Shown here in pieces: positions 11,336 through 30,573 of a stretch of 31,265 nucleotides of DNA. The notes beneath the pieces are model-generated. The model had not been told where the DNA came from. It saw only the letters and a program-made list of their open reading frames with translations, and made no database searches. The stretch comes from an uncultured Gammaproteobacteria bacterium (GTDB lineage: Bacteria; Patescibacteriota; Patescibacteriia; Patescibacteriales; XYC2-FULL-47-12), in contig CAYHIM010000001.1 in assembly GCA_964356665.1 (NCBI GenBank), positions 1 through 31,265 of the forward strand. Direction: 5' to 3'. The position numbers were made by a program, and so were the translations under genes. Numbering within the stretch: position 1 is the first letter of the stretch; each line of letters opens with the position of its first letter.

Positions 11336-11365
11336 AAAATATCTAAAAAAATAAATGCTTTAGTT

Positions 11366-11374: not shown

Positions 11375-11393
11375 GATTTTTATTAATCTTACT

Positions 11394-11431
11394 AAAAAAG
11401 AAAAACGCCGAGCCAAATGAATGACCCGGCG
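11394..11431 (-). terminator. Intrinsic terminator of purL
   Basis: Minus RNA CGCCGGGUCA-UUCAUU-UGGCUCGGCG (10 bp, 2 G-U) followed by UUUUUCUUUUUU. Confidence 0.85.
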
Positions 11432-11457
11432 GGGAATTTAAATAATAGATTTACTCC

Positions 11458-14400
11458 CTAATCTATGCTGCAAAAAAATGAAACAGGCTCAACGGAACAG
11501 TCGTCAACAGCACTGCACCATAAATAGGCATTTTGGAACATACGTCGCCAGGGAGAACTCTGAATATCCGCCCACTCGCGCGGCCAATATGGCCATTGGT
11601 ATGGCAATACTGTCCGCTCCGGATGTTCCATAAAAGCCAAATGCCGACCGGTTGAATCACACAAAGCAGTAATGCCGAGCGCGGAGCCGTTGGGATTAAA
11701 CGGATACTTCTCGGTGGGAGTACCATAATCGTCAACGAACAGTATCGGGGCCAAATGCTCATTAAAAATCTTCTGCTGCACTTCCGGATCGGGGATAACC
11801 AATCTTCCTTCTCCGTGCGCGCAATGGACTCCTAGTACTGCCCTCTCCATTCCAGCTAGCATGATTGCCGGCGACGGACAAATCCGTACTGTTGGGAAAC
11901 GAGCCTCAAAACATTCGCTGGTGTTAGCAATCAAAGCAGGTTGAATTATTTCCGGCATCATCCAAGGAACGATTCCAAGCAATACCATCAGCTGACATCC
12001 ATTACAAACGCCTAAACTGAAAGTATCTGGCCGGTCATAAAATTTAGCAAACTCGCGTGCAGTTTGTTGGTTGAATTTGATAACTCCAGCCCAACCCTTA
12101 GCGGCTCCTAAAACGTCCTTGTAAGAAAAGCCGCCCACAAAGGCGATGCCCCTAAACCAGCTAAGGGAAACGCGACCCGCAATGATATCGGTCATGGTCA
12201 CGTCCCACACCTCAAAACCAGCGAGGTGGAAGGCGAATTTCATTTCCTCATCACCATTACTCCCTTCCTCGCGAATGATTGCTACCCGCGGCAAATTGGA
12301 AGAAGCGGAACGAAAAGAGATTGGCCGGCAGTCAGGATCAAAGTTTAGATAGTAACAGGGGCCAGGTCGGTCAAAGGTGTTAGCGCGTTCGTTAGCTACG
12401 CACGACCTTACCGCGTGAAAATTCTTGAGTTGAAATGAGGTATCGCGCCAGATTTCGCGCAGTACCTGCATATCTTCCTCAAGAACTAATTGGTTGTTAT
12501 GCGTAACTGTGATGCGCTTTTCCCGTGAAGTTGCACCAACTAGCTGGAGAGAATCCGCTAATCCTGCTTTACAGAAGCACTCTTGTAAGGCCGCCTCGTT
12601 TTTGGGTAAAACTTCCAGAACAAAGCCAAGCTCTTCATTGAAGAGTAGCTCAATTTTTGAAGCAGAGGGATGATTTAACTGAACATTAATCCCGCAGTTG
12701 CCAGCAAACGCCATTTTAGATAGCGCCGCCATTAACCCGCCCCTAGTTCTAGCGCAAACGGACAGAGCCAACTTTTCGCGCAATATTTTTTGCATGAGAT
12801 AAAAGGCTCGGTTGAGCGTTTGCGGGCTTTCAACATCTGGAGCTCGAGTGCCGATTTGGCATAAAGTTTGGGCCAGCGCACTTCCGCCCAGCCGAATATT
12901 GCCTTTGGCCAAATCAACAAAATAAAGTCTGCTTTCTCCCGGCCGCTTGATGTCAGGAGTAGTTCGTAAACGGAAATCCGGACAGCCAACATAGGTTGAA
13001 ATAACTAAAGTACTAGGGGACTGTACTGTAGTATCATCCACTTTAGCTGCCAGTGAAAGCGAGTCCTTACCACCATCAATGCCCATGCCGATCTTAGGCA
13101 TAAAACGATTCAACGCCGAAGCTGCATCATACAACCAGGCAATGCCACCCGGTAATTTGGCTGCCAGCATCCAGTTCCCTGAAACTTTAATATCTTGCCG
13201 CCGAGTTACGGGAACACCAATAAGCTTCAACAGGGCTTCAGCCGCGGTCATGCATGCCATAGCCTGCGGGGAGATAAAGCCGATTGCTGGCCTAACTCCA
13301 ATTGAATCTGCCTGTCCGACATGTTTAAAGTGGCTAAGAGCTATTACCGAGTAATCATTGACTGGTAGACCTAACTGTCCAACAGACTCTGACTGTACTA
13401 CTTTGCCGGTAACGCTATTGTCCACGATAGTTGTCATCCACTCTTTTGAGCAAACACCCAAAAGCCGAAAGACTCTTTCAATTGCTTGGCGTACGGTAAG
13501 ATCCGATGGTATGTCAATCGGTTGAATGGGAGGGCGACGGCGTTTGTCCTGATACATCTTTTGCGGATAATCGCCAAAAACATGTTTGAGATCAAGGTCG
13601 GCGACTACTGTGCTATCTTCGTCAACAACCACAAACTTGCTGTCATGGGAAACAACGCCAATCGCAGCACAATGAACTTTTTCACGTTCGCATATTGCCG
13701 CAAACTCCTCCCACCTGTCTGGCTCAATCAACAGCGCTAAATTCTCCTGATACTCGGCAACCATAATTTCATCATCAGTGAGAGTTGGGTCGCCAAGCGG
13801 AATAGAACGCAGTCTGATTACCGCGCCTTGGGGGTTAACAATCTCCTTTAGAACATTGCCGTTGCCGCCGGCTCCCTGGTCATGAATGACCTTGATGGGG
13901 TTTCTCTCACCCATCAAAATACAAGCGCGCAAAACGCGGTCGGCTTTATTAGCCATTTCGCCATTTGCCCGCTGGACTGAATTAAAGTCCAAATCTTCAG
14001 TGCTTTCACCTTGCATCATGCTGGAGGCAGAGCCGCCGCCAACGCCGACGCGGTAGGCGAGTCCGCCAATCTTAACTACCAGCCAACCTTCTTTTGGTTT
14101 GGCTTTCTCCACGTGCCGGGCATCAATTATACTGAAGCCGCCGGAAAACATTACCGGCTTAACAAATTCCCAGCGCTTGTCGCCAATAATCATGCCAAAA
14201 CTTTCCGCAAAAGTAAGAATAACCGGCTCGCCGAACTGATTGCCGTCATCAAACGCGCCTTTAGTGGCCCGGATGAAAAAGTTTAATGGCGATTCAGTGC
14301 GCGGATCATAACTGAAGGTTTTGTCCTCCCAAGGGAGTTCGTATCCGGCAATATTAAGATTGCCGCCCATAAACCCGGCTGAACCGGCAACAACAATTCC

Positions 14401-17875: not shown

Positions 17876-18127
17876 CTATTCCGTAAAACATTCGGCATAG
17901 AGGTCGGGGTGATGCGACATATGTTCTTGCCATTCCGCTTCGGTATAGCCGGGCGGAGTTTGGCATTTGTCCGGCAACTCGGCTTGTAGGGCTTTGGTAA
18001 AATTATTTTGATTATTAATCAATGACGAAACAGCCGGCTGCCTGCCAAATATTCCCCAAGCCGACCAAATTAAACCGCCTAAGGCTAAAATTACTAAGAC
18101 AGTAATAATTAATTTTTCCCATTGCAT
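17876..18127 (-). CDS. Small membrane-anchored protein with a C-x12-H-M-x-HH-x6-C motif
   Basis: Start at MQWEK (18127), TM, then CQTPPGYTEAEWQEHMSHHPDLYAEC. Confidence 0.75.
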   Translation of the reverse strand: MQWEKLIITVLVILALGGLIWSAWGIFGRQPAVSSLINNQNNFTKALQAELPDKCQTPPGYTEAEWQEHMSHHPDLYAECFTE

Positions 18128-18137
18128 AAAATTATTG

Positions 18138-18407
18138 TTAACAGCCGCCGACTTGGGAAGGCAGACCAAGATTAGCGGAAGCGGCCGGCGCGGCTGCGGG
18201 CGCGGCGGCGCCGCGGGCGGAATTAGCCGCCTGCACATAACCGCGCAGGCGGCCAATTTCTATTGACTGGAAAAAAGTCATTAAGAGTAAAATAATCACT
18301 ACTCCGATAATAATGCCGTCTTTAAGCAGCCGAACGCGCTGACGGCGCTGGTCAAAAAGACTGTCTATTTCTTGCGCCGCTGTTGCTTTTAAGGTTGCGT
18401 TGTCCAT
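18138..18407 (-). CDS. Small single-TM protein ending LPSQVGGC
   Basis: 89 aa with a TM, an Ala/Pro linker and a C-terminal GGC. Confidence 0.75.
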   Translation of the reverse strand: MDNATLKATAAQEIDSLFDQRRQRVRLLKDGIIIGVVIILLLMTFFQSIEIGRLRGYVQAANSARGAAAPAAAPAASANLGLPSQVGGC

Positions 18408-19256: not shown

Positions 19257-19292
19257 AAATAAGTATATTTAGTAAATAAAACCGATTCGCTT

Positions 19293-20534
19293 TTACACGA
19301 ACCACATTAAAATAATAATGCCGACTGCTACGGCGGCAACGCCTAACCAAAGCTTCCAAGTTTTGGCGGCGTCTGCTTGCCAAGCGGCTATCCGGCTAAG
19401 CGCGTAGTGGTTGCCGACAAAGGCTAATAATACTATCAGCGGCAACACAAACATTACATTATAGAGCAAAAGATAACCGAAGCCCTGCCAAAAATTATTC
19501 CGAGAAGCAAGCAAGCCGATAATCGCGACATAAATTCCGCCGGAACAGGGGAAAGTGCAAAGCCCGACTAAAAACGCGCCAACAATAACTGCCGACAACG
19601 TCCCTTTGGTCAGCCAGCGCTGCAACGCTCCTTGAGAAAAATGCGGTATTTGTAATTTTATAGGAAACCGCGGCAGGTAATAACCGATAATATTTATTCC
19701 GCCCAAAACAATAATCAGCCAAGCGCCGATTTTAGCCATTAGATGCGGCTCATTAGATAAGACGATCGCTTTAAATAATCCTAAGCCAATGCCTAAATAC
19801 GTCAGATAGATAATACCGATGTAGAGACTGCCGTAAAGCGCGATTAACTTTAAACTGCCTTTGAACGTAAACAGAAAAGCGATAAAAAACAACAGTACCG
19901 CAAAGGCGCAAGGATTAATGCCGTCAAGCAGTCCGGTGGAAAGTACCAGCGGCAATAAGGAGCGTTGTTTGTTTTGGCTCGGAAATAATTCCTGCTTCTG
20001 CCAAGAATTAAGATAGGTTGTTAATGGTTCGTCTAAACCATACATTTGCGCGGCCATACCGGGCTGCCAGACCGCATATTTAACATCTTTAATTTGAATG
20101 CCCGACATTCCTAACATCTGGTCTTGGAAAATCAGCATCGGCTGCGGCAGCTGCTTAGTTGCTATCGCCTCGCGCACTCGCGCCAAAGGCACATGCCCGC
20201 CAATAATAACTCTGCCGTCATCAAGAAAGGTCATAATATGACTCTGTAATTCATAGGGGATGTTAAATTTATCCTGCAAAGAATTCAGGTCTCTTCTCAC
20301 CTGCCGGTCGTTTAAATAATCAAATAACTTAACCGTCATTCCTTGCCCTTGTAAGTAAGGCACGAGCTCTTGGGTCAAATACTGATTGCAATCGCCGCAC
20401 GCTTCGTTGTAATAGATATCTGCCGTTTGATAACGTTCCTCCGGCTCCGCCGCCCAAACAAAATGCCAGCTAACTAACAGCAAACCGGCTATCAAGCCGT
20501 TTCTTAGATATTTTTTTAGCTTAAATTTTTTCAT
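19293..20534 (-). CDS. Thioredoxin-like domain plus CcdA/DsbD-type membrane thiol-redox protein
   Basis: Signal peptide, CGDC motif, and TM domain with GLLDGINPCAF and CTFPCSGGIY. Confidence 0.85.
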   Translation of the reverse strand: MKKFKLKKYLRNGLIAGLLLVSWHFVWAAEPEERYQTADIYYNEACGDCNQYLTQELVPYLQGQGMTVKLFDYLNDRQVRRDLNSLQDKFNIPYELQSHIMTFLDDGRVIIGGHVPLARVREAIATKQLPQPMLIFQDQMLGMSGIQIKDVKYAVWQPGMAAQMYGLDEPLTTYLNSWQKQELFPSQNKQRSLLPLVLSTGLLDGINPCAFAVLLFFIAFLFTFKGSLKLIALYGSLYIGIIYLTYLGIGLGLFKAIVLSNEPHLMAKIGAWLIIVLGGINIIGYYLPRFPIKLQIPHFSQGALQRWLTKGTLSAVIVGAFLVGLCTFPCSGGIYVAIIGLLASRNNFWQGFGYLLLYNVMFVLPLIVLLAFVGNHYALSRIAAWQADAAKTWKLWLGVAAVAVGIIILMWFV

Positions 20535-20544: not shown

Positions 20545-21042
20545 TTAATTTACTTTATTCGGGTCAATGGTGATGCTAAAAGTTAAAGTATATTCGTCGC
20601 GCGGATTTTCTGTTTTAAGATAAATAGCGCGCTGAAATGAGCCCTTGGCGTTTTCTAATCCATGGGCCAGCGGATTGTAGGCGGCAATTACCTCCATCTC
20701 TTCGCCCGCGCCTAAGGTAAAATTTGTCCGCGGCAGATTGCCGTGGTCCATGCCTATCGGCGCAGTTATTCTATTGCCTTGGCGCAACTGCGCCGTGGTA
20801 CAGCCGCAGGAGGTAGCTACTTTAACAATGGTGATGTCGCCCGCGCCTATATTTTTAAGGCGGAAAATATGGCTCACGGAAGCGAGTCCGACCACGCCAA
20901 AGTCATAATCACTTTCGCTGATTTCTAACCTGCCCTCGGCTAACGCCACTGATTTAGTATTTTGATTCACGAAGTACCAGCCCACCGCCACTAAGACGAC
21001 TGCTGTTACCCCGATAAGATATTTTAATTGTTTGGTCTTCAT
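20545..21042 (-). CDS. DUF1573-like exported protein
   Basis: TM anchor, DFG, F.LKNIG, TSCGCT, plus an MDH insert. Confidence 0.8.
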   Translation of the reverse strand: MKTKQLKYLIGVTAVVLVAVGWYFVNQNTKSVALAEGRLEISESDYDFGVVGLASVSHIFRLKNIGAGDITIVKVATSCGCTTAQLRQGNRITAPIGMDHGNLPRTNFTLGAGEEMEVIAAYNPLAHGLENAKGSFQRAIYLKTENPRDEYTLTFSITIDPNKVN

Positions 21043-21063
21043 AGCGATGCTTTAAAAATAACT

Positions 21064-21156
21064 AAAATAAAAAACACTTTGCTTAACTAAGCAAACCTTG
21101 CTCTCCCTAATGTCCAAATTAAGGAAAGCGATTAATTGCTTAGCCGAGCAAAGTGT
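21064..21156 (-). terminator. Long hairpin plus U-tract overlapping the end of the 134-aa ORF (putative attenuator 2)
   Basis: Outer stem 21156-21136 / 21094-21074 (20/21 paired, 2 G-U). Inner stem 21129-21118 / 21111-21100 (12/12, 2 G-U). Followed by UUUUUAUUUU. Confidence 0.8.
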
Positions 21157-21536
21157 CGGCGGTATATTTTAGGCAAACTTTCAAGCAAAACATCGTGCGG
21201 ATGCAGGCGGCGGTAATAGCTATTAACCCCTTGTTCGCCTAAACGGATGGTGGTAAATAAAAACAGATTAATAGTGTCGTCTGCAACTTGCCGCCATCTG
21301 AACCAAATCAGCGCTAATAAAATTGCCACTATACCGCTTACTAAAAAGTTGGCTACTACCTTAGTCATCGTAGTAATATGCGTCAAAGCAGATAAAGCTT
21401 CGTTACCGCACTCCAAACCGACAGAACACCCTAAATGAATGCTCTGCTGGCTGCAGCTGCTCCAAGCCAAAGGAATCGCCACTAAAGCGAGGATGATACT
21501 AATCGCTATCACTATTTGTAACCGGTGCGGCAACAT
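21132..21536 (-). CDS. Two-TM Cys/His protein with a PKIY motif near the C-terminus (putative leader ORF 2)
   Basis: Hydrophobic N-terminus, C28/H34/C37/C43/H53, second TM, YYRR and PKIY (aa 122-125). Confidence 0.7.
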   Translation of the reverse strand: MLPHRLQIVIAISIILALVAIPLAWSSCSQQSIHLGCSVGLECGNEALSALTHITTMTKVVANFLVSGIVAILLALIWFRWRQVADDTINLFLFTTIRLGEQGVNSYYRRLHPHDVLLESLPKIYRRHFARLSN

Positions 21537-21547
21537 AAATAATACTC

Positions 21548-21769
21548 TTAACTTTTAAGCGTTTTTTTAATTTCTGCTAATTCTTTTTTGCTAATTTCGC
21601 CTCGGGCATACCGTTCGTGAGCAATATCCAGCGCCGAATCCTTATTGGTGCGGCCACTGACTAAACGCGCTAACCAAACAATAATTAATATAACCAAAAC
21701 CCAGCTAATAATCATCGTCAGCCACCCGAAACCCATCCCGCCCGGGTAGCCGTAAAAATATCCCATCAT
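21548..21769 (-). CDS. SHOCT-domain small membrane protein
   Basis: MMGYFYGYPGGMGFGW, TM, ALDIAHERYARGEISKKE. GGAGG precedes ATG 21769/21766. Confidence 0.85.
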   Translation of the reverse strand: MMGYFYGYPGGMGFGWLTMIISWVLVILIIVWLARLVSGRTNKDSALDIAHERYARGEISKKELAEIKKTLKS

Positions 21770-21806
21770 AAAGCCTCCTATGATTTTATAAATTAATAAA
21801 TTCAAT

Positions 21807-24209
21807 CTACTTTGATATTACTCCGGCGCTAAAACGCGCGAATTCAAAGAAAAGAAAAGAAAACAATGCCACCATAATAATGGGCGCGATTAGCGAAAGG
21901 TAATTGGTCCGGCTTGGTTTAAACAACCGTAAAGTCAAAGAATTGCTGACCACCGAAATGGAACTCAAGGCCATCGCTAAACCGGCAAGCTCCGGTTTTA
22001 AGATAATGCCGGCGAATGCCAAAACGCGCGCGGCAATCGGGATGCCGACCACGTTATAAAACAAAGCGAAAAACATATTCTGCTTAATTTTACTGACCGT
22101 TTCGCGGCTCAAATCAATCGCCGCCAAAACATCGCGCAAATCATTTTTAATGATAACAATGCCGCCCGTCTCCATCGCCACGTCGGTGCCGCTGCCCATC
22201 GCTATGCCTAAATCGGCTTGCGCCAGCGCCGGCGCGTCATTGATGCCGTCGCCGACCATCGCGATTTTCTGGCCGCTTGCTTGCAATTTTTTTATTTCGT
22301 TCGCTTTATCTTCCGGCAATACTTCCGCAAGCACTTTGGTGATGCCGGCTTGTTTAGCAATCGCCGCCGCCGTGCGCTCGTTATCGCCGGTTATCATAAA
22401 CACTTCCACGCCGCGCTCTTGCAGCTCGCGCACGGTTTCTACGGCGCTGTCTTTGATGGTGTCCGCTACCGCCACTAAACCTAATATGGTTTGCTCGTTC
22501 GCTAACATCATTGCTGTTTTGCCTTCGCCTTCTAAAACATGCAGTTTCATTTCTGTCGCCTCCAACGTTAAGCCAGCCACATCCGTAATCAGCCGGCGGT
22601 TGCCTAAGAAATATTTTTTTTCATTTATTATTCCTTCCACGCCATGCCCGGGAATTGCCCGGAAATCAACTGTGTCAATCAAAGCAATTCTTTCTTTATC
22701 CGCGTATTTTACAATCGCCTCCGCCAACGGATGTTCGGATTTACTTTCCAGTGAAGCCGCTATCTGTATTATCTCTTTTGTTAATAATTCATTCGTCATT
22801 CGTAATTCGTCATTCTTAATTGTTATAACGTCCGTTACTGCCGGCTGTCCTTTGGTTAAAGTGCCGGTTTTATCAAAAACAATCGCTTTAATCTTACAAG
22901 CCGCTTCCAGCGGTTCGCCGCCTTTAATGAGAATGCCGTATTCCGCGCCTTTGCCGGTCCCGACCATAATCGCGGTCGGCGTAGCGAGTCCCAAAGCGCA
23001 AGGGCAAGCAATAACAATGACGGCGGTAAAAGCCATCAAACTAAAGGTTAAATTCGCGCCTAAAACAAAAAACCAGATGACAAAAGTAAGCGCGGCGATA
23101 ATTAACACTAACGGCACAAACACGGCGGAAATTTTATCCGCCAGCGCCTGAATGGGCGCTTTGGAGCTTTGCGCTTCCTCTACCACGCGGATGATTTGCC
23201 CGAGCGCGGTTTCTGTTCCTACCCGCTCGGCGCGGAACTGGAAACTGCCGTTCTTATTAACGGTTGCGCCATAAACTTTGTCGCCCGCATTTTTTTCTAT
23301 CGGAATGCTTTCTCCCGTCAGCATTGACTCGTCTACGGCGGAAACGCCTTTAGTAATAACTCCGTCCACGGGAATTTTTTCTCCCGGCCGCACCAAGATA
23401 ATATCGCCAATGACTACCTGCTCAATAGGAATATCGCGAGTACTACTATCGCGTACCACGCGCGCGGTTTTTGGCTGCAGCCCAATCAAGCGCTTAATTG
23501 ATTCGGAGGTTCTGCCTTTGGCCTTTGCTTCCAGCCACTTGCCTAAAATGACAAAGGTGATTAAAAAGGCGGCGGTTTCAAAATAAAGCTCGGGGATTTT
23601 TTCACCGCCAATGCCAATCAAACTGCGGTTAGTAATCGCGTAATTAAGATATTGCCATAAACTATAAAAAAATGCGGTGCTCGTGCCAATGGCGATTAAA
23701 CTATCCATGTTAAATGTCCGCAGGCGCAAGCCGCTGTATAACCCGTGATAAAAACCGGCGCCGATAACAAACTGCACCGGGATAGTGAGGAGAAGGGAGA
23801 CTAAACCGATGTAAGACAAAATAACGCGGCCGGGCAAAGCGGGCGCAAAATCAAAAAGCATAAAGTACAGCATGGGCAAACTAAGAATCAAGCTAATTAA
23901 AAATCTCTGCCGATACTTTTTCATTTCCCGCTCCCGTTTCTGCCGCTCGGCTTCCGGGTTGCTTTTATCGGCTAAAACGGCGCGATAACCGGCTTTTTCC
24001 ACGGCCTTGATAAGCTCGGACAAGGAAGCCGCGTTTTCGTCAAATTTTACAATTGCTTTTTCGGTAGCAAAGTTGACGTTTGCTTGTTCTACGCCGGCTG
24101 TTTTTTTAAGCGCATGCTCAATAATTTGCGCGCAGGAGGCGCAATGCATGCCTTCAATATCTAAGGTAGTTAGTTTTTTTATTTCCATATTTTTGTCATT
24201 TATATTCAC
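21807..24209 (-). CDS. copA: Cu(I)-translocating P1B-1 ATPase
   Basis: HMA GMHCASC, TGES, CPC, DKTGT, SEHPL, GDGIND, YN and MALSS. Confidence 0.96.
22791..22818. repeat. Four tandem heptamers inside copA
   Basis: ATTCGTC ATTCGTA ATTCGTC ATTCTTA, encoding [10 protein letters not shown] on the minus strand. Confidence 0.75.
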
Positions 24210-24219
24210 CGCAAAATAG

Positions 24220-24423
24220 TTACGATTGAACGGTATAACCAGTACCGGCTAGCGCCTGTTCAACTTCTTGTTTAGCGATTGCACGGTCAGCTAAAATTTC
24301 AACCGCGCCGGTTTCCGCAACGCGCGCTTCGCTGACGCCCGAAATTTCTTCTAATTTCATCTTAGTTAACTTTGCACAGGAAGGACAATGAAATCCTTGG
24401 ATTGTTATTTTTGTTGTTATCAT
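24220..24423 (-). CDS. copZ: HMA-domain copper chaperone (CopZ-like)
   Basis: 67 aa, GFHCPSC; immediately upstream of copA. Confidence 0.85.
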
Positions 24424-24427
24424 ATAA

Positions 24428-26266
24428 TTATTGTACCTTAATTAAACCGCGCGGTACACCCATTGCGCAAGTGATGGGATATTCGCCGGTGTCTTGGGGA
24501 GTAAAATTCATCACAATTTTTTTGCCGGCTTGCAACAACTCGGGCTGATTATACAGCCCCGGCACCATAATCGTACTCATGCAGCCGTAGCCGTTTTCTT
24601 TAGCGTCAATTTCTAACCGTACCGGCTTGCCGGCTTGCACGATAAATGAATTGGGCTGAATGTCGGCATCATAAGTATAGGATGTTTTCAGTACTTGCGC
24701 GCCTTGGCTGTCAGAAGGCGCAACGGAGTTGGTGTTATTGTTTATCTGTCCGTTGTTTGGCGCAAACGGCTTACGCGCCCCGCCACAACCACAGCCGCCC
24801 GCGCCGCAAGCGCTGCCGGTATTGCCGCTGATACTACTATCAAAGGCGGAACGTAAAGCAACGTTATTTATTATCGGCGCCTGGGCGGAGGAATCAATAA
24901 CGTTAAAGCTGCCCGTATACATCCCCATACTGCAGGAAAATTTAATTTGGCCCGCCTGCGTGGGCGTGAACTCCACGATATTTTGGCCCGGCTTTAAGTT
25001 AAAGCGCAGATTCAGCGCCGGCACTACCATGCTGGAAGCGCACGAATACGGCGCCTGGGCGTCAATCAGCCACCGCACCGGCATTCCTGCCCGAATAGTA
25101 AATTGCCGCGGCGAATAGCCGTAATTGCCTTCGGTCATTTTTACTATTTGCGCGCCATCAACAACAGAAACATTAGGGTCGGCAACAACGGCATTTGTTT
25201 GCGCCGCCCGCGCCGAAAAATCTAGGTTCCAGCCGAGCAAACGCAAACCGTTAGTAAAATTAAAGAGAGCTAACATCATTACCACTAACCCGGCGAACTT
25301 AAAGAACCGCTTGGCAAAAATGCCTTTAACGACCGAGGTAATACCGCCGACGCTTAATAGCCCGGGGGCGGTGCCTAAAGCAAACACTCCCATAATCAAA
25401 GCGCCCGCTAGAAAAGTGCCGCTGCTGACGGCGTACAATTGCATCGCCTGCGTAAAGCCGCAAGGCAGAAAAAAAGTCAAGGCGCCGGCTACGGCCGCTT
25501 GCTTATGATTATATTCTTTGATGTGCTGATTCGCGCCTAAGAGGCGGCTGATGCTTTTAGGCAAAGTAAATTTCCAATTCGTCAGCCAAGGAAAAATATC
25601 AATTAATTGCAATCCAACTAAAAGCATCACTAATGCCACCCCAATGGTCAATAAGCCGACTAAATTACCGGACAACTGCAACACGCTCCCCGCTAGGCCG
25701 AGCAATCCGCCGCCCAAAGCATAGCCGGCAACGCGCCCCATATTAAAGAAAAGATGCGGCCGGAATTTCTGCCACGGACTTGCCTCGGGGTGCGCTTCGG
25801 CGTGGCGCGTAGCAATGCCCAATACTATGCCGCCCACGAGCGCCATGCAGGTAGAAAACCCAGCCGTGAGCCCGACGAGCAAAACGAGCGGCAAACTAAA
25901 CGATTGCGCCGCTAAATTAGCGCCGAAATTCAAGATGCCGAAATTTTTTAACGCTAACCATGCTACCGCTAACACAAAGAAGGCGATGCCTAAATCCTGA
26001 TAATCGCTCCAGTTGCGGTTAAGCCAAGCTTTGGGCTGGTTAATTCCTACTTCATAGCCCGCCGCCCGAATAGCTGCGGCGATTTCATTATCATTGGGTT
26101 TCTGCCCGTGGTAATAAATGTCAACGCCCGCCCGCGCGACGCTCGCTTGCGCGTTCGCTACTTCCGGAATTTGAGATAATTTTCCCTCTACCAGCATCTC
26201 GCAGGAGCGGCAGTGCATGCCTTTGATAGGCACACATATTTTTTCATGTTTTTTATGTGAAGACAT
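24428..26266 (-). CDS. HMA plus DsbD_2/TauE-like membrane domain plus two cupredoxin-like domains
   Basis: GMHCRSC; GFSTCMALVGG and FLPCGFTQ; CASS...CSMGMY; linker CGAGGCGCGG; CMST...CAMG. Confidence 0.88.
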   Translation of the reverse strand: MSSHKKHEKICVPIKGMHCRSCEMLVEGKLSQIPEVANAQASVARAGVDIYYHGQKPNDNEIAAAIRAAGYEVGINQPKAWLNRNWSDYQDLGIAFFVLAVAWLALKNFGILNFGANLAAQSFSLPLVLLVGLTAGFSTCMALVGGIVLGIATRHAEAHPEASPWQKFRPHLFFNMGRVAGYALGGGLLGLAGSVLQLSGNLVGLLTIGVALVMLLVGLQLIDIFPWLTNWKFTLPKSISRLLGANQHIKEYNHKQAAVAGALTFFLPCGFTQAMQLYAVSSGTFLAGALIMGVFALGTAPGLLSVGGITSVVKGIFAKRFFKFAGLVVMMLALFNFTNGLRLLGWNLDFSARAAQTNAVVADPNVSVVDGAQIVKMTEGNYGYSPRQFTIRAGMPVRWLIDAQAPYSCASSMVVPALNLRFNLKPGQNIVEFTPTQAGQIKFSCSMGMYTGSFNVIDSSAQAPIINNVALRSAFDSSISGNTGSACGAGGCGCGGARKPFAPNNGQINNNTNSVAPSDSQGAQVLKTSYTYDADIQPNSFIVQAGKPVRLEIDAKENGYGCMSTIMVPGLYNQPELLQAGKKIVMNFTPQDTGEYPITCAMGVPRGLIKVQ

Positions 26267-26292
26267 AATTGAATACTTAATATTTTAATGCC

Positions 26293-26379
26293 AAATACAA
26301 AACGCCCAAACACCATTGCTAAATAGTAAAATTTGCCTCTGAAGAAAGAGGAGTCTATTTAGCGATAATATTTAGGCGT
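26293..26379 (-). terminator. 25-bp hairpin plus U-tract overlapping the stop of the 132-aa ORF (putative attenuator 1)
   Basis: 26379-26355 pairs with 26326-26302 (24/25, 4 G-U). Inner CCUCU/AGAGG. Followed by UUUGUAUUU. Confidence 0.8.
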
Positions 26380-26770
26380 AAATTTTCGGGTGCAAAATGC
26401 CCTTGGCAAAAAGAGTATTAAAATAATTATGTATCTTTTCTAACCTGCTTTTTCTTTTGTAATAGTAATACCAAACAATCAGCCGCGCCGCTATTGTCTT
26501 TATCAGCGCTTTAAAACTAAAACTTACTGCTAAAGCGGCGATTACTATCAGCGCCAATAATTGCCCGGGCAGAGCGGAAAAAATTTGTTTCCAAAAACTA
26601 ATGTGATTAACCACTCCCATGGGGCAAAGAGTAGCCATCCCGCTATTAAATTGGCAAGGCGAGGGGGCGCCGGAACTAAAACTATTCATCCCTAACTGCA
26701 CGCCGAAACTGGCCATCATAATAAAGATGGCTAAAAGAATAATGATGTTTTGGCGCAGTATAAATTTCAT
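26372..26770 (-). CDS. Two-TM Cys/His protein ending GILHPKIYA (putative leader ORF 1)
   Basis: Hydrophobic N-terminus, C39/C49-P-M/H56, second TM, YYYYKRK and PKIY (aa 128-131). Confidence 0.78.
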   Translation of the reverse strand: MKFILRQNIIILLAIFIMMASFGVQLGMNSFSSGAPSPCQFNSGMATLCPMGVVNHISFWKQIFSALPGQLLALIVIAALAVSFSFKALIKTIAARLIVWYYYYKRKSRLEKIHNYFNTLFAKGILHPKIYA

Positions 26771-26804
26771 AAGCTTATTAGCGGTTTATTCTTCCTGTGA
26801 ATAT

Positions 26805-26833
26805 ATACTAACATAAAAAAATAAAAAAAGCAA
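26805..26833 (-). promoter_or_regulatory. Sigma70-type promoter for the copper cluster
   Basis: Minus strand TTGCTT (26833-26828), 17 nt, then TGn-TAGTAT (26810-26805). Confidence 0.55.
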
Positions 26834-26836: not shown

Positions 26837-27607
26837 TCATCTCTTCTCCAACTCTATTAGTAAAGCATCAATGGCTGATTTTAATTGATTGTAGGAAACC
26901 GCGCCGGAAATCGGAATCTTTTCGCCTTTAACTAAAATCACCGAATAAGGGGTGCCGCCGGCGCCGCCCGCGAGCAATGCTTGGGATAATTCACTAGCAA
27001 CTTTATTAGCGTATTTGCCCGAGTCCAAGCAGGCAAGAAAATCTTGTTGGTTAAGGCCGATTTGCGCGGCAATACGGGGCAATTGCTGCGGATCAAGCCC
27101 ATCATTGGAAGGCGTTATAAAAAATATCGCATCAAGGTACTGCCAAAATTTATCATTTCCTCCCAGTTCCGCCGCGCACTCGCTAGCTTCCGCTTCTTTG
27201 CGTGCTTTGGTATGCAAAGAGTCAATTGGGAAATGGCGGTATACCCAGCTAACTTTACCCGGATAAGCAGTAACTATTTGCTGTAACACCGAATGGAACT
27301 CTTTACAAAAAGGGCATTCCAAATCAGCAAACTCAATAATAGTAATCGGGGCGGTACGCACGCCGCGCACATGGTCGTAGCGCGCCAGCGGAGCAATTGT
27401 AGTGCCCTGATTATTGTTTGCCCTTGCGGCTAAATTTTGGTCGCGGGAGGTTTGGCCCTGCAATGCGGGCAAAGTAGTATTGCCTGTTCCGGTTTCCCGC
27501 GCCGGATTAGGGATTTTGGCTATTACTAAAAATAAAAACCCTATTGCTGCCAATAAAACAATGATGATAACCGAGGCAATTAAGATAGTTGTATTTTTCT
27601 TTAGCAT
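26837..27607 (-). CDS. Membrane-anchored DsbA-family thiol-disulfide oxidoreductase
   Basis: DHVRG, IIEFADLECPFC, WVYRHFP and GTP cis-Pro loop. Confidence 0.92.
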   Translation of the reverse strand: MLKKNTTILIASVIIIVLLAAIGFLFLVIAKIPNPARETGTGNTTLPALQGQTSRDQNLAARANNNQGTTIAPLARYDHVRGVRTAPITIIEFADLECPFCKEFHSVLQQIVTAYPGKVSWVYRHFPIDSLHTKARKEAEASECAAELGGNDKFWQYLDAIFFITPSNDGLDPQQLPRIAAQIGLNQQDFLACLDSGKYANKVASELSQALLAGGAGGTPYSVILVKGEKIPISGAVSYNQLKSAIDALLIELEKR

Positions 27608-27633: not shown

Positions 27634-30573
27634 CTATTCCGGAATGTTATTAAGCACGCTGTCGCTGACGGGAATAAATCTCCCGCCTAAGGCATTATAT
27701 TCAACACTATCAATCCAACGTTTATAAAGCGCATTGCCTAAATCTTCAATAACGTAAATCCTGTCCCCAGAGCCTTTGAGCGGCTGATTAAGCATAAAAT
27801 CAAACAAAGCGTTATTGCCGATATCAACCCCGAGCATCATTTGCCTGACTTTACCTTCCGCGCTCTGCTGCCAATTTCTAATAATAATGTCTTGGCCGGC
27901 CAAAAAGTAAGCCTCGTAAACGCAGGCGCTGCCGGTTTTTATATAACCGCCGGCTTGTGTTTGTTCATCAAAATTTAAAGCTCCGCCGCTCTGATACGGG
28001 CTAGCCATCTTTAAATTAGCGGCCGGGCAGCGGTTTGAATCCTCCGGCACGTCTTCATAAAAAACAACGCGGATAACATTATAATTATCAGCGGCAGTGT
28101 TGTCTAAAGCCGTAAGTAAATTAGCAGAAGGGCAAAGCGGGGTTCTAGTATTAATGCCAGCTGTCCCCCAAAAATCAGTGGAGCGGCTACAGCTTCTGCC
28201 TGCCGTACCGATATAGTCGCCGCCCACGCTCCGCAAATAATTATAGTAACTATTAATATAATTTAAATAATCCTGGCCGCTCCAAGCAACTGCTTCTACA
28301 AAACCGGAGTTTCGGCTTTGATAGTGCCCGCCGAGGTTATAGGGTCGCCCCTGCCATTCTAAGTAAGGGCGGTTGCCGTGGCGCCAACTGCTTGAATTTT
28401 GTTCGTCAATTTGAAAATATTGCTCGCGAGTTGGAAAATACATATCGGCGTAAGGCGCGCCGCTTTCGTATTGATAATATCCGTTAGCCGCAAAATTAAT
28501 CGGGCTAGTTGGATTATTAAATTCAATTAGATGTTTAAAATATCTTTGCCAAATTTCCGGACTATATGCTTGCTGCCCGCCGCCTAATTCGCCGTAAGTA
28601 TTATCCGCTATCCCCATCAGCCAAAGGGGGTGAGTACCGACGCTGACGTAACTCGTGAGCACTATTACTTTTTCACTCTCACTGTCCCCTCGGTTATAAT
28701 AGCGAAAGTGCCCAAACCCCATCAACGCACTGGGTGCCGAATGATAATTGCCTTGTCTGGTAATAGTGCCAAGCTCCCCGCTGAAAACCAAATCTTGTTT
28801 ATTAACAATCGCACCGCCATCGTTAAAAATAGCGTAACTAGCGTCAGCCAAATTTAAATAATTATCCAAATTAATCCTAATGCTGCCTTGAGGTTGCGCC
28901 ATCACTTCTATCGGCTGAAATCCGGACAGCCGCTCGGTGCTGTAATTGCTCTTCGCCATATTAACAATTTCTGCGGCAGTGAGATTATAGCCGCGCTCGG
29001 CTAACCATCGTTCGTCTTCGGGGCTTAAGCCGCTGATTTTTATTCTATCTAAATCATCCCAGTCGTAGCCGCTAGTTGCCAGTTGAGCAATGTCTTGCCG
29101 ACCATAACCGTAAGCCGCAAACCAGCCAGCGTCATAAGGGGTATATTTACTTTTAACAATAATATGCAATCCGTAAGCATACCGGCCGGGAGCAGGCGGC
29201 TCGTCTATTGCCTGGCGCTCGCTCGCCGCAATTGCTTTATATTGCGGCACTAACTGCCAAACGCCGCCTTCGGCTTTGCGCCAAAGTTCAAGGTGGCTCG
29301 CGCGGCTTTGCGCCCAGGGATCCATGTCCCAAGAGACTACAACTTGGCTGCCGTCTGTTGTGGTTTGGACAGAAAATCCCGAGAGCAACGGCAAGAGCGG
29401 ATTGTAAATACAAATCCCTTGCCCGTTATTAATGTAAGCGCAACGAGCGATGCCAGCCGCGCAATCATTATCGTTACGGCAACTGGCCGCGCATTGCTGG
29501 CAAGTTCCATTAGGCAGACACCCGTTAACTGAAGGGTACGGGCCGCAGTCAAGCGCGCAGCCGCTCTGGCAGGATAAGGCAGGAGATGGACAGGCCTGTG
29601 TGTTGCAGTTGACAATCATCCGCGCCGGACCAAGGCAATATTTGCCGCCGCCGCTGGGCAGAGGATTATCGCACTGCCGCGTTTTGATGGCAATCCCGCC
29701 GCCGCAGGTTTGCGAACAGGCGCCGGCAATCTGCCAGCCGCTCCAGCCGCCGTCAACGGGCGAGGGAAAATCAAATAATGACAGCGGCTGTGACACCGCC
29801 GCCGCTGCCGCTTTCCAAACATTCACTATTCTAGCAATAATTGATGATGATTGTGCGACTGCCACTGAAACGGGCGCTGCCGCGGCAGCGTCTAATTCGG
29901 TTCCGTCGCCGCTAATGTCTTCTTCTGCCGCCGGCGCGATAGTTTCCACCGCCACCTGGTCAAATTTAATTAAACCCATAAAAAAAGATTTGACCACGTA
30001 ACGCGCCCCGATAAAAACAGCGGCAATAATAACGGCGCCAATTGCTCCGGTAATAAAAAAATTTCTCACTAAAGAAAACTTTAATAATTTCATTAAAACA
30101 AACCCGGCAGCGAGCAAAATAACAATTAATAAAATCGCGGATAAAATATTAGCTAACCAGCTTAAGGCTGTCTGAAAAATGCCGGCGGTAAATTCACTCG
30201 TACCGAAAAAAATAAAAATTGCGCCGGTGGTGATTTTTTTTATCCAATCCGTAATTAGGCCAAGCGGGTCATGCCAATTAAAACCGGCTGTTTTACCGCC
30301 GATAACTATTATCCCAGACCATAATTTAGCCGGCGCCTGACTAAAATAGTCGCCGGCTTGCTTAAAAAATACTAAAACCGCGTTAATTGCTTGAGCGGTT
30401 TGAATGTCATTGCCCGTAAAATCCAAACCATATTGTTTTTGTCCGGCCGCGGGCGCCGGCTGTTCTTCGCGAGTCACCTCTTCCGCCAGCGGCAAATCAA
30501 GCGCTTGCGCGAACAGCGGCGCGCCTAGCGCTAAACTAACAATGGTTACCGACAATATAATAATGTTGCGCAT
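27634..30573 (-). CDS. Large exported/membrane protein with a thrombospondin type-1 repeat, a 10-Cys module and an FN3-like segment
   Basis: Signal peptide, TM pair, DGGWSGW..ACSQTCGGG...RQCDNP.P.GGGKYC.G.....CNTQAC, and VVVSW..D....ELWRK...W. Confidence 0.85.
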   Translation of the reverse strand: MRNIIILSVTIVSLALGAPLFAQALDLPLAEEVTREEQPAPAAGQKQYGLDFTGNDIQTAQAINAVLVFFKQAGDYFSQAPAKLWSGIIVIGGKTAGFNWHDPLGLITDWIKKITTGAIFIFFGTSEFTAGIFQTALSWLANILSAILLIVILLAAGFVLMKLLKFSLVRNFFITGAIGAVIIAAVFIGARYVVKSFFMGLIKFDQVAVETIAPAAEEDISGDGTELDAAAAAPVSVAVAQSSSIIARIVNVWKAAAAAVSQPLSLFDFPSPVDGGWSGWQIAGACSQTCGGGIAIKTRQCDNPLPSGGGKYCLGPARMIVNCNTQACPSPALSCQSGCALDCGPYPSVNGCLPNGTCQQCAASCRNDNDCAAGIARCAYINNGQGICIYNPLLPLLSGFSVQTTTDGSQVVVSWDMDPWAQSRASHLELWRKAEGGVWQLVPQYKAIAASERQAIDEPPAPGRYAYGLHIIVKSKYTPYDAGWFAAYGYGRQDIAQLATSGYDWDDLDRIKISGLSPEDERWLAERGYNLTAAEIVNMAKSNYSTERLSGFQPIEVMAQPQGSIRINLDNYLNLADASYAIFNDGGAIVNKQDLVFSGELGTITRQGNYHSAPSALMGFGHFRYYNRGDSESEKVIVLTSYVSVGTHPLWLMGIADNTYGELGGGQQAYSPEIWQRYFKHLIEFNNPTSPINFAANGYYQYESGAPYADMYFPTREQYFQIDEQNSSSWRHGNRPYLEWQGRPYNLGGHYQSRNSGFVEAVAWSGQDYLNYINSYYNYLRSVGGDYIGTAGRSCSRSTDFWGTAGINTRTPLCPSANLLTALDNTAADNYNVIRVVFYEDVPEDSNRCPAANLKMASPYQSGGALNFDEQTQAGGYIKTGSACVYEAYFLAGQDIIIRNWQQSAEGKVRQMMLGVDIGNNALFDFMLNQPLKGSGDRIYVIEDLGNALYKRWIDSVEYNALGGRFIPVSDSVLNNIPE

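Follow-up and report, generated by a model that had tools for sequence, protein, structure and literature searches.

ORF1, a 132-aa ORF heading a copper gene cluster in the 31,265-nt stretch of DNA analysed here (the window), belongs to a large, unnamed family of small membrane proteins restricted to CPR bacteria. Our leading, though tentative, interpretation is that it is translated into a genuine, stable copper-binding membrane protein whose gene is followed by a leaky intra-operon terminator. A preliminary description of the sequence had proposed that ORF1 and the more distal ORF2 are twin leaders of a copper attenuation system, in which ribosomes stall at a PKIY motif and thereby control the folding of downstream hairpins. 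In silico refutation tests left this idea unrefuted for ORF1 and its overall interpretation partly supported; the evidence is no less compatible with a small copper-binding protein and a leaky terminator behind its gene than with a copper-sensing switch.

Both ORFs were found where they had been described, within a same-strand array of copper and thiol-redox genes (Table 1). Pfam searches bore out the copper and DUF1573 neighbours; the CcdA-like match is weak, the DsbD_TM hit covering profile positions 5-210 of 219 in a membrane protein with an 84% identical orthologue in the related locus L001. The DsbA-like gene lies upstream of ORF1 across a 66-nt gap and keeps this position in L001 and L070. 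The HMA-DsbD_2-cupredoxin gene, the first downstream of hairpin 1, lacks a Shine-Dalgarno (SD) sequence, as do nearly all genes in the window. The CopZ-like protein has an 82% identical orthologue in L001, and the SHOCT-domain gene precedes ORF2 also in L001 and L050. The host is a tiny groundwater (CPR) bacterium. No known copper regulator was found within the window, in line with the described absence of CsoR, CueR and CopY genes, and the host's own 92%-complete genome yielded no CsoR or MerR-type match; PF03965 matches a single protein there, of the winged-helix type and free of Cys. The argument that a missing regulator implies an attenuator nevertheless fails family-wide, since CsoR is encoded in 12 of 18 genomes bearing ORF1-family genes and in 216 of 401 (54%) in a sample of the phylum, i.e. 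at the background rate.

Table 1. Features of the copper locus, listed in the direction of transcription.
Feature	Position	Strand	Evidence or remark
DsbA-like thioredoxin gene	26837-27607	minus	Pfam Thioredoxin_4 6.8e-21, DSBA 3.2e-14
ORF1 (P0001, 132 aa)	26372-26770	minus	translation; member of large unnamed CPR family
Hairpin 1, three-part stem	26302-26379	minus	-38.8 kcal/mol, z -5.8
U-tract after hairpin 1 (UUUUGUAUUU on RNA)	26292-26301	minus	read from sequence
HMA-DsbD_2-cupredoxin fusion	24428-26266	minus	Pfam DsbD_2 1.2e-31, Cupredoxin_1 3e-15, HMA 6e-9
CopZ-like small HMA protein	24220-24423	minus	Pfam HMA 5.9e-4, below cut-off
CopA-type P1B ATPase	21807-24209	minus	Pfam E1-E2_ATPase 3e-64, Hydrolase 4e-41, HMA 1e-18
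Small SHOCT-domain protein, 85 aa	21548-21805	minus	Pfam SHOCT 1.6e-4, below cut-off
ORF2 (P0002, 134 aa)	21132-21536	minus	translation; orphan two-helix Cys/His membrane protein, end of copA module
Hairpin 2, three-part stem	21073-21157	minus	-43.8 kcal/mol, z -6.1
U-tract after hairpin 2	21062-21072	minus	read from sequence; 20-30 nt before next ATG (21042)
DUF1573 gene, first after hairpin 2	20545-21042	minus	Pfam DUF1573 6e-10
413-aa membrane protein, weakly CcdA/DsbD_TM-like	19293-20534	minus	Pfam DsbD_TM E 0.025, below cut-off

The ORF1 family comprises 1016 clusters at 50% identity; these relatives (E<=1e-3) are all about 130-145 aa long and matched full length (~130 aa covered). No Pfam or NCBIfam model matches the family. 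Its outer loop follows the consensus M..G.M..C-P-F-M...C-x-M....H..W-Q..F, with C39 conserved in 100%, C49 in 97%, M51 in 94%, H56 in 98% and W60 in 97%, and helix 1 is conserved as well (F16, F22, G23). At the extreme C-terminus lies the motif G-I-L-[HNQ]-[PS]-[KR]-[ILV]-[YF], ORF1 itself reading ...GILHPKIYA-stop. The expected conservation of the PKIY-type motif in homologues thus holds for this family: among 156 aligned sequences its columns contain P in 81% (otherwise Ser), K/R in 98%, I/L/V in 93% and Y/F in 95%, and in 92 of 133 motif-bearing sequences (69%) it ends 0-1 residue before the stop codon. RAPP, RGPP, poly-Pro or any other known arrest motif is absent from the family, a DUF2946 (PF11162) search of 91 members gave no match, and no DNA-binding or sigma-binding domain is recognisable. 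The nearest named protein-atlas clusters, DUF2946, DUF6769, DUF6153 and LpqS (scores 0.82-0.84), are a lead only. A sister subfamily shares the N-terminal module (hhalign probability 98.5%, E 3e-15) and differs in its tail, WLSLFENSP[SA]F; in four of the five loci examined its gene lies within an operon that csoR heads, tightly packed in two of these, and in L041 its gene starts 2 nt after the CsoR stop codon, with the next gene 16 nt on.

Along ORF1, an N-terminal hydrophobic helix is followed by a Cys/His loop (C39, C49, H56), another hydrophobic helix and a patch of Tyr, Arg and Lys. AlphaFold2 predicts a helix at residues 2-28, a low-confidence loop at 29-52, a helix at 53-65, a long helix at 69-122 and a coil tail, with pLDDT values of 87-91 for helix 2 and the cytoplasmic helix. 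Together with hydropathy and the positive-inside rule, this model points to an N-in/C-in topology, in which helix 1 would cross the membrane from an N-terminus inside the cell, an outer loop of ~40 residues would carry the conserved Cys/Met/His set, and helix 2 would re-cross the membrane and extend as a cytoplasmic helix of ~30 residues ending in the coil that bears the C-terminal motif. Most likely, the Cys/Met/His set would bind Cu(I) at the outer membrane face, and the protein would act in trans, assisting or sensing the co-encoded extracytoplasmic copper and thiol-redox machinery, while a partner in the cytoplasm would dock on its terminal motif. When a complex of ORF1 and the HMA-DsbD_2 protein was predicted, the score was 0.00, neither support nor counter-evidence. 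Across the family, a median of 45 aa (IQR 42-47) separates the end of helix 2 from the C-terminus, within the range where membrane insertion pulls on a nascent chain.

As previously described, a long hairpin followed by a U-tract starts near the PKIY Tyr codon of each ORF. Hairpin 1, which none of 200 shuffles matched in folding, begins within the Tyr codon and carries the ORF1 stop codon (26372-26374) in its 5' arm. Hairpin 2 begins 5 nt past the Tyr codon and its 5' arm corresponds to the last eight ORF2 codons; the ORF2 stop codon (21132-21134) is unpaired, between the middle and apical stems. The first U-tract spans 35 to 25 nt upstream of the next ATG (26266) and is nearly invariant across three orthologues. 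Hairpin 1 is kept in L001, L006 and L068, its main stems showing 2 compensatory pairs, ~10 one-sided pair-preserving changes and 2 breaks, and a different long hairpin with a compensatory pair replaces it in L070 and L072. In L001 and L050, hairpin 2 retains ~92% identity; within its main hairpin, 6 one-sided changes preserve pairing and double changes are absent. In ORF1 orthologues the hairpin thus persists despite sequence turnover, with a few compensatory pairs. Each hairpin is unique in the genome, hairpin 1 has no Rfam match, and no alternative anti-terminator fold was seen. Genes of this genome often have a long, strong hairpin behind them; in a ranking of 338 same-strand gaps, hairpin 2 comes 14th.

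Both hairpins with their U-tracts are intrinsic-terminator-like elements inside a same-strand gene array, and no conserved promoter separates them from the next start codon. Past hairpin 1, the only candidate has a weak -35 and is not conserved in orthologues, indels destroying it in L001 and L006. Transcription therefore probably reaches the downstream copper genes by read-through, and leaky termination may set the expression ratios between modules. Because the stop codon lies inside the stem in this clade, a terminating ribosome must transiently open the hairpin, which would couple read-through to the translation of the small ORF; a copper dependence of this coupling has no support.

Across the family, a same-strand gene follows the ORF1 homologue in 23 of 23 loci and, as anticipated, belongs to copper or thiol-redox functions wherever identifiable. 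The ORF1-family gene lies mostly at the 5' edge of copper/thiol clusters, the downstream genes are of different families and no partner gene is constant. The gap behind it is long (median 93 nt vs 28 nt in control junctions) and contains a terminator-like hairpin in 13/20 loci vs 47/176 control junctions. The anticipated hairpins thus do occur in homologues, but within gaps of 40 nt or more they are not clearly enriched (13/17 vs 46/80), and same-strand genes in these genomes often have such hairpins between them. They start anywhere from -8 to +21 nt relative to the stop codon end and, in most loci, 12-21 nt past it, beyond the reach of a ribosome at the motif or stop; ribosome-coupled attenuation as a family property is not borne out by this varying geometry.

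The proposed role of the small ORFs as copper-sensing leaders that act in cis, in the manner of CruR and CutF, appears to us possible but rather unlikely. In this model, copper bound to the exported loop, the insertion of helix 2, or both would alter ribosome dwell at the motif or stop codon, and a ribosome held there would cover the hairpin 5' arm, prevent terminator formation and let RNA polymerase enter the copper genes, in two tiers (ORF1/hairpin 1, then ORF2/hairpin 2). If so, the C-terminal tail of the ORF1 family could be a new copper-sensing switch. A near-invariant motif at the last residues is indeed unusual for a structural tail and typical of arrest peptides, the 5'-edge position before varied gene families would be expected of a regulator more than of a dedicated partner, the host genome yields no CsoR or MerR-type match, and no partner emerged for ORF1, all of which count against a copper-binding protein with a leaky terminator. 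The narrow helix 2 spacer, the long gaps with stem-loops, the stop codon within the stem, the hairpins kept or replaced in orthologues and the atlas neighbours (as a lead) also agree with leaders.

There are precedents. CruR (Bp2923) of Bordetella pertussis and CutF of Rhodobacter capsulatus are DUF2946 copper-responsive upstream ORFs (PMC9426467; PMC9973294; bioRxiv 10.1101/2025.02.05.636593) and, like ORF1-family members, small membrane-targeted proteins with exported conserved Cys and a conserved extreme C-terminal motif, placed first before same-strand copper-homeostasis genes of varied families and a long structured gap. However, they show no sequence relationship to the family and have CxxC or CxxxC instead of Cx9C plus Met/His; the ORF1 family, unlike them, returns its tail to the cytoplasm through a second transmembrane helix, and this tail is without RAPP or PPP. 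Downstream there is a terminator-like hairpin here, a Rho site for CruR and an SD-masking stem for CutF, and SD sequences are unused in this genome. RAPP/RGPP arrest peptides, including multi-TM ones in Streptomyces lividans, precede metal-homeostasis, DsbA and thioredoxin genes, so having more than one transmembrane segment does not prevent a protein from being an arrest peptide (PMC12992588). Like the family, these small membrane proteins have conserved Cys/His and a C-terminal motif, and a metal or thiol-redox gene follows in the same direction, but their defining motif is absent here, one conserved Pro apart. SecM, MifM and the stop-codon-acting motifs NSP-stop, NAP-stop and DGMK-stop (PMC10951299; PMC10987492) resemble the family in a motif at most a few residues from the stop codon and a membrane-targeting segment at a fixed spacer. 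In the 170-residue SecM, arrested at residue 166 (PMC10951299; PMC10987492), G-I-R-A-G-P plus four residues faintly recalls G-I-x-x-P plus four here, a three-residue likeness that is a lead only; its critical Arg has no counterpart, and copper/thiol genes, not Sec or YidC, lie downstream here. Stalling on the msrD leader governs an intrinsic terminator (PMC10314930) and ribosomes prevent other terminator hairpins (PMC5021804), the end of the upstream ORF overlapping the hairpin so that ribosome position decides its formation; those leaders, however, are short peptides sensing antibiotics or amino acids in the tunnel, and not a conserved 132-aa membrane protein lacking a visible anti-terminator.

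Against leaders stand, besides the missing arrest motifs, DUF2946 match and anti-terminator fold, the hairpin starts out of ribosome reach, the gap-controlled hairpin frequency, the background CsoR rate and the sister subfamily in csoR operons, almost gapless in two loci; moreover, membership of ORF2 in the family cannot be demonstrated, and 9 residues separate its PKIY from the stop. Most of these observations, along with conservation over the full length, including helix 1 and loop residues and not the tail alone, the confident AlphaFold2 helices, the commonness of long hairpins and the unconserved inter-gene promoter, argue for a copper-binding protein with a leaky terminator. We regard as improbable, both variants taken together, that the small proteins are trans-acting membrane regulators, as opposed to passive carriers of copper, followed by ordinary leaky terminators, either as a small regulatory subunit of CopA or the HMA-DsbD_2 protein or as a signal transducer whose C-terminal peptide holds a cytoplasmic factor. 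Other P-type ATPases have single-span regulatory subunits, and the position at the head of diverse copper/thiol clusters, the conserved cytoplasmic helix with its peptide-like tail and, in L070, an ECF sigma factor gene with a possible anti-sigma gene behind the cop genes fit such a role; the inconstant partner gene and the lack of a recognisable DNA- or sigma-binding domain do not, and the complex prediction lends it no support. Comparable is ScsA, a small predicted two-helix inner-membrane Cys-motif protein and first gene product of the copper-induced Salmonella copper/redox operon scsABCD, with its DsbD-/DsbA-like proteins (PMC10907172); it shows no detectable similarity to ORF1 (no Pfam or NCBIfam match of any kind) and, unlike the ORF1 family, has CxxC and a lipobox-like sequence and occurs in proteobacteria. 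More improbable still are efficient end-of-gene terminators separating the small ORFs and copper genes into distinct transcription units, each module being transcribed from a separate promoter within the 25-35 AT-rich nucleotides that follow the U-tract, into a leaderless or near-leaderless mRNA. Very short leaders are conceivable in a genome not using SD sequences, the AT-rich spacers hold -10-like hexamers and terminator-like hairpins are frequent, but, beyond the loss of the sole candidate promoter, the spacers of most loci leave too little room for both a -35/-10 promoter and a leader, with only ~11 nt between U-tract and start codon in L033.

ORF2 shares with ORF1 the N-terminal hydrophobic helix, Cys/His loop (here C28, H34, C37, C43 and H53), second hydrophobic helix and Tyr/Arg/Lys patch, as the translations confirm, and PKIY follows the His by 72 aa in ORF1 and 69 aa in ORF2, matching the described ~70 aa. 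Its C-terminus reads ...LPKIYRRHFARLSN-stop, that is, ...LPKIY plus 9 residues. The designation as twins stands for architecture and not for homology, which is unsupported by BLASTP (E 6.5), by the ORF1-family HMM (E 0.03 against three sequences, leaving membership unsupported) and by hhalign (probability 14% over 21 C-terminal columns). No ORF2 homologue was found among 400 genomes of the phylum; its only two close homologues are 63-66% identical, and one has SKIY instead of PKIY. By our own estimate, the probability that the two ORFs share a tetrapeptide at a similar position by chance is a few percent.

Word-based searching with ORF1 (P0001) returned only three close relatives. A profile search against 1.8 billion cluster representatives retrieved 1016 matches at E≤1e-3 and 154 at E≤1e-10, nearly all of them 130–145 aa long and aligned end to end, which defines a family of over 1000 clusters at 50% identity. 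Its members are labelled as hypothetical proteins in every source, the named sources being Falkowbacteria, Harrisonbacteria, Curtissbacteria and Parcubacteria, and no Pfam, NCBIfam or PDB relatives were found. The distribution is patchy, with 19 of 401 sampled genomes of the phylum carrying one copy each. ORF1 itself matches the family profile with an E value of 5e-39 and contains helix 1, the C..C.M..H..W loop, helix 2 and the GILxPKxY tail. An alignment of 156 sequences revealed conserved columns in helix 1 (F16, F22, G23) and throughout the loop (M28, G34, M36, C39 (100%), P40, F41, M42, C49 (97%), M51 (94%), H56 (98%), W60 (97%), Q61 and F64), helix 2 being variable in sequence. The tail follows the pattern Y.[KR]..P..KLFN.L..AFS.G(97%)I(89%)L(87%)[HNQ][P 81%/S 16%][K 78%/R 20%][ILV][Y 76%/F 19%]. 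A motif of the form [PS][KR][ILVMT][YFW] lies near the end of 133 of 153 members, separated from the stop by 0–1 residue in 92 of these 133 and never by more than 9 residues, and the C-terminus lies within a narrow range of distances past the end of helix 2 (median 45, IQR 42–47). Thus, a C-terminal motif of the PKIY type, to which the preliminary description drew attention, is conserved in the homologues of ORF1. AlphaFold2, supplied with the family alignment, modelled ORF1 as a helix (residues 2–28), a low-confidence loop, a second helix (53–65), a long confident helix (69–122) and a coil tail.

CruR and CutF sense copper as nascent exported proteins (PMC9426467; bioRxiv 10.1101/2025.02.05.636593), and RAPP/RGPP leaders with up to four membrane segments precede metal and thioredoxin genes (PMC12992588). 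Arrest motifs acting at stop codons exist (PMC10987492), and intrinsic terminators can be controlled by leader stalling (PMC10314930). The ORF1 family resembles CruR and CutF in its N-terminal membrane-targeting segment and in heading same-strand copper-related operons with a long gap after the gene (median 93 nt, against 28 nt at control junctions). It differs from them in the copper motif, CxxC/CxxxC in CruR/CutF but Cx9C (100% and 97%) with M51, H56 and W60 and no CxxC in the family, and in the arrest motif, which is RAPP or Pro-rich in CruR/CutF, whereas the family has GIL[HNQ][PS][KR][ILV][YF] with a single Pro at 81%. Neither P0001 nor ORF2 (P0002) matched DUF2946 (PF11162) at E≤0.01, and the 25 families listed at E≤1 for the 91 members of the ORF1 family do not include PF11162. 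As judged by sequence, the ORF1 family is not DUF2946 and has only its design features. Membership in DUF2946, DUF6153, DUF6769 or LpqS, for which atlas scores were 0.82–0.84, was ruled out, no HMM match being obtained. ScsA of Salmonella is, like ORF1, a two-helix protein with a Cys motif encoded by the first gene of a DsbD/DsbA copper operon, scsABCD (PMC10907172); the lack of any Pfam, NCBIfam or PDB match extends to this relationship, in libraries that may hold no ScsA model.

The minus strand of the window carries a long array of same-strand genes (see the table of features), belonging to a CPR bacterium whose genome of 0.92 Mb is 92% complete. The locus is syntenic with a Candidatus Falkowbacteria contig (L001), at 62–90% protein identity (CopA not tabulated). 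Hydrophobic helices were predicted at residues 9–27 and 72–90 of ORF1 and at residues 6–24 and 60–78 of ORF2, and both proteins possess an N-terminal membrane-targeting segment, a Cys/His loop between the helices and a Tyr/Arg/Lys patch past helix 2. The thrombospondin repeat of the 979-aa surface protein is also present in its orthologues in L001 and in the related locus L068.

Features of the minus-strand array and its hairpins (window coordinates; genes in array order)
Feature	Position	Strand	Remarks
Glycosyltransferase		(-)	first in array order
979-aa surface protein	27634-30573	(-)	upstream of DsbA-like gene; thrombospondin type-1 repeat PF00090, E 2e-6
DsbA-like thioredoxin	26837-27607	(-)	
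ORF1	26372-26770	(-)	132 aa; ends ...GILHPKIYA-stop
Hairpin 1	26379-26302	minus-strand RNA	-38.8 kcal/mol, z -5.8; three-part, then U-rich run
HMA-DsbD_2-cupredoxin fusion	24428-26266	(-)	
CopZ-like protein		(-)	between HMA-DsbD_2-cupredoxin fusion and CopA
CopA	21807-24209	(-)	
Small SHOCT protein		(-)	between CopA and ORF2
ORF2	21132-21536	(-)	134 aa; ends ...LPKIYRRHFARLSN-stop
Hairpin 2	21157-21073	minus-strand RNA	-43.8 kcal/mol, z -6.1; three-part, then U-rich run
DUF1573 gene	20545-21042	(-)	
413-aa protein, weakly CcdA-like		(-)	after DUF1573
Further small Cys-rich membrane proteins		(-)	past 413-aa protein

Translation and RNA folding confirmed the ORF ends, architecture, hairpins and U-tracts reported in the preliminary description. 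The 5' arm of hairpin 1 begins inside the Tyr codon and includes the stop codon, and that of hairpin 2 consists of the last eight codons of ORF2; none of 200 shuffles folded as well as either hairpin. Both are stem-loops followed by a U-tract on the transcribed strand, as in intrinsic terminators, and their MFE and centroid folds contained the terminator fold only. Each U-tract lies ~30–35 nt ahead of the next ATG, with no more than 25–35 nt between the tracts and the start codons. Within the copper/thiol block, long gaps (105 and 89 nt) and large hairpins occur only at the ORF1 and ORF2 junctions, the remaining junctions measuring -119 to 38 nt. The hairpins are not copies of a repeated palindromic element, each being unique in the genome; no Rfam match was obtained at E≤1, and their DNA is not exceptionally conserved, since the ~90% identity to L001 is equalled by many coding windows. 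Hairpin 2 ranks 14th of the 338 same-strand gaps of the genome by folding energy, and several of the stronger hairpins in such gaps are long perfect palindromes. Hairpins 1 and 2 are unexceptional for this organism. Long near-perfect intergenic palindromes, stronger than both, were observed elsewhere in the genome in contigs C74 (~2175–2290), C64 (~3220–3336), C59 (~3916–4030) and C19 (~4256–4370); they have a common outer stem, GTCATTGCGAG...CTCGCAATGAC, and an inner stem, GGGATTGC, and look like a repeated extragenic palindrome family.

To define the genomic context of the family, we inspected 12-kb regions around 18 other genomic hits, later complemented with three orthologous loci. A same-strand gene follows the family gene in all 23 loci and, where identified, belongs to a copper- or thiol-related family (see the table of downstream genes), as the attenuation idea of the preliminary description would require. 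Same-strand neighbours account for 547 of 719 (~76%) in the source genome, and by our own calculation the chance of an all-same-strand result at ~18 independent loci is near 0.01. The gene upstream is frequently an unrelated one (GatB, an SMC-like ATPase or a divergent gene), so the family gene tends to lie at the 5' edge of its cluster. The family, its motif and its link to copper/thiol clusters in CPR bacteria appear to be undescribed in the libraries and papers searched.

Genes downstream of the family gene (L numbers are related loci in other genomes)
Downstream gene	Loci
HMA-DsbD_2, then CopA	window, L001, L029, L030, L031, L033, L068, L070
Cupredoxin-CopA	L026
DsbA/thioredoxin-like, often then cysteine desulfurase	L027, L034, L039, L040
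CcdA-Redoxin	L035
DUF1573	L036
CusB-like adaptor and RND pump	L038, L041
DUF411	L042, L043
Unidentified	L028, L032, L037; L072 (gene cut)

The DUF411 genes lie directly past the family member in L042 (6425–6907, E 6e-22) and L043 (5416–5901, E 2e-25); the L043 protein also has a glutaredoxin-like N-terminal part, and a DUF302 gene lies just upstream in L042. The Falkowbacteria-like locus L070 encodes an ECF sigma factor and a possible 247-aa anti-sigma protein (10742–12079), after the cop genes and a lycopene-cyclase-like membrane protein.

The source genome yielded no match to CsoR or to MerR-type regulators; five receiver domains occur elsewhere in it, and its sole PF03965 match, considered as a CopY candidate, is a 113-aa winged-helix protein devoid of Cys. 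The absence is not general to the family, given that CsoR is present in 12 of the 18 other family-bearing genomes. As 216 of 401 sampled genomes encode CsoR, no anti-correlation between the two was found. Five loci (L035, L036, L038, L041 and L042, in each at about 5970–6450 in the family-gene orientation) harbour a sister subfamily that shares with the family the N-terminal 72 columns comprising the Cys/Met/His module (hhalign probability 98.5%) and carries a WLSL[FL]ENSP[SA]F or shorter tail. In four of the five the gene is part of a csoR-headed operon; in L041, 2 nt separate the csoR stop from the start of the subfamily gene, and 16 nt separate that gene from the following one. Among loci with the GILxPKxY tail, none has a same-strand csoR within 6 kb, and CsoR is found somewhere in the genome in 7 of 14, the background rate. 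Tail type and csoR adjacency may be linked, a suggestive association drawn from perhaps two independent lineages. In L038 and L041, the sister-subfamily gene is followed by a CusB-like adaptor and an AcrB-type RND pump, which is unexpected because CPR bacteria are thought to lack an outer membrane.

We then compared the junctions across the family with a terminator finder requiring a stem of at most -8 kcal/mol ending at a U-rich run. Terminator-like hairpins were found at 13 of 20 family junctions and at 47 of the 176 remaining same-strand junctions of those loci. When only gaps of at least 40 nt were counted, the figures were 13 of 17 and 46 of 80, so that what sets the family junctions apart is mostly their greater share of long gaps. 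Where the hairpin starts with respect to the stop codon is not a conserved feature: it overlaps the stop codon in the clade of the window (the window, L001, L006, L068) and in L036, L038 and L028, and begins 5–21 nt past it in L027, L029, L031, L032, L033, L043, L070 and L072. In most family loci outside this clade, the distance from stop codon to stem is 12–21 nt. Ribosomes positioned with the stop codon in the A site reach ~7–9 nt past it, and so could not prevent stem formation in most loci. Relative to L068 (58% protein identity), hairpin 1 has two compensatory pairs, ~10 one-sided pair-preserving changes and two breaks in the main stems; L070 and L072 (51%) have another long hairpin that ends in a tail of similar kind, showing an A-U to G-C exchange between them, and hairpin 2 has one-sided changes only. 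The double changes (two for hairpin 1 in four sequences, none for hairpin 2 in three and one for L070/L072) are too few for a covariation test. Hence, the expectation that homologues would share the hairpin held for the orthologues and for most junctions, but there was no clear enrichment among gaps of at least 40 nt and no conserved position.

ORF2 has only two close homologues, in the same slot between the SHOCT and DUF1573 genes, one of them with SKIY in place of PKIY; no further relatives were detected in 400 genomes. Homology to ORF1 is unsupported by BLASTP (E 6.5) or by hhalign of alignments A1 and A2, the latter from the ORF2 side (probability 0.2%). The family HMM gave E 0.03 in an hmmsearch against three sequences, and the family profile left P0002 unmatched in its own genome at E≤1. 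The best result, the family alignment A3 against A2 (hhalign probability 14%, E 0.002), covers 21 tail columns only, aligning YY[KR]R..P and PKIY, and the alternative-tail alignment A9 gave a probability of 0.2% against A2. The only support for membership comes from gene order, L036 having a true family member between CopA and a DUF1573/CcdA-like pair, in the very place that ORF2 takes here. The two ORFs are therefore twins in architecture but not demonstrably in descent, and ORF2 was handled as an orphan that shares the architecture of ORF1 and is possibly a highly diverged paralogue.

A consensus scan after hairpin 1 identified one promoter-like site, whose second hexamer overlaps the ATG; the spacer contains indels in L001 and L006, and in L033 the U-tract ends only ~11 nt from the next start codon. 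Promoter candidates between hairpin 1 and the ATG are thus weak and not conserved in the orthologues, and an organization in separate transcription units seems highly improbable. In the simplest reading, the downstream genes would be reached by read-through, the hairpins acting as leaky or conditional terminators inside a transcription unit. A mechanism in which a ribosome-binding site is masked does not apply here, because Shine-Dalgarno sequences are hardly used in this genome. The sequencing runs listed for the locus are groundwater-metagenome DNA runs, with no RNA run among them.

The preliminary description proposed that ORF1 and ORF2 are cis-acting copper-sensing leaders, in which stalling at PKIY controls the terminators in two tiers. 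Such leaders are favoured by an invariant motif at the extreme C-terminus, a location in front of diverse copper/thiol genes, long gaps containing RNA structure, a fixed distance past helix 2, the stop codon inside the stem in the clade of the window and the published precedents (CruR, CutF, RAPP/RGPP leaders, stop-codon arrest motifs and terminator control by leader stalling). However, hairpin geometry is not conserved, hairpins are not clearly enriched once gap length is controlled, conservation extends over the whole protein including helix 1, the model is confidently helical, the tail matches no known arrest motif, the family co-occurs with CsoR and its sister subfamily sits inside csoR operons, tightly packed in two loci. 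Because of this balance, we place first a stable copper-binding membrane protein that acts in trans, with a leaky terminator coupled to translation behind its gene, a reading that falls just short of probable; the leader model appears rather unlikely, and a trans-acting membrane regulator more unlikely again. The predicted complex of ORF1 with the HMA-DsbD_2 protein scored 0.00, an uninformative result that lends no support either way. Extended to the whole family, the leader model would make it a CPR-wide set of copper-sensing nascent-chain switches devoid of a Pro-Pro or RAPP motif, which we regard as doubtful. In such a switch, the GIL[HNQ]P[KR][ILV][YF]-stop tail would delay the ribosome during elongation or at termination, and copper would tune the pause via the outer Cys/Met/His loop and insertion of helix 2, ~45 residues upstream. 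In the clade of the window, the paused ribosome would hold open the intrinsic terminator containing the stop codon, resulting in two-tier, repressor-free control of copper and thiol-redox modules.

CPR bacteria (Patescibacteria) have tiny genomes with few recognisable regulators and, to our knowledge, essentially nothing is known of how they control toxic-metal defence. This very large unannotated family marks copper/thiol-redox clusters across the CPR, and its last-residue motif is among the most conserved short motifs conceivable there. If the motif is an arrest or termination-pause signal, the CruR/CutF copper-leader principle would extend to a Pro-Pro-free motif, gain intrinsic terminators as output and reach a major uncultivated bacterial branch with unusual ribosomes; if it is a docking peptide, it would point to an unknown cytoplasmic partner of extracytoplasmic copper handling. 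The family merits a name under either reading.

Almost none of the 29 genes called in the window has a Shine-Dalgarno-like sequence at -6 to -12, the upstream regions being simply AT-rich, so the lineage seems to start translation without such pairing. Two longest-ORF calls on the minus strand, 18138–18407 and 17876–18256, overlap by 119 nt; the latter, of 126 aa, is probably too long, as the L001 annotation suggests a later start (85 aa). A third, weaker hairpin within the array (19283–19304, minus strand, -9.7 kcal/mol), short and terminator-like, overlaps the stop codon of the gene for the 413-aa CcdA-like protein and lies shortly ahead of a 54-aa mini-ORF with CxxC.
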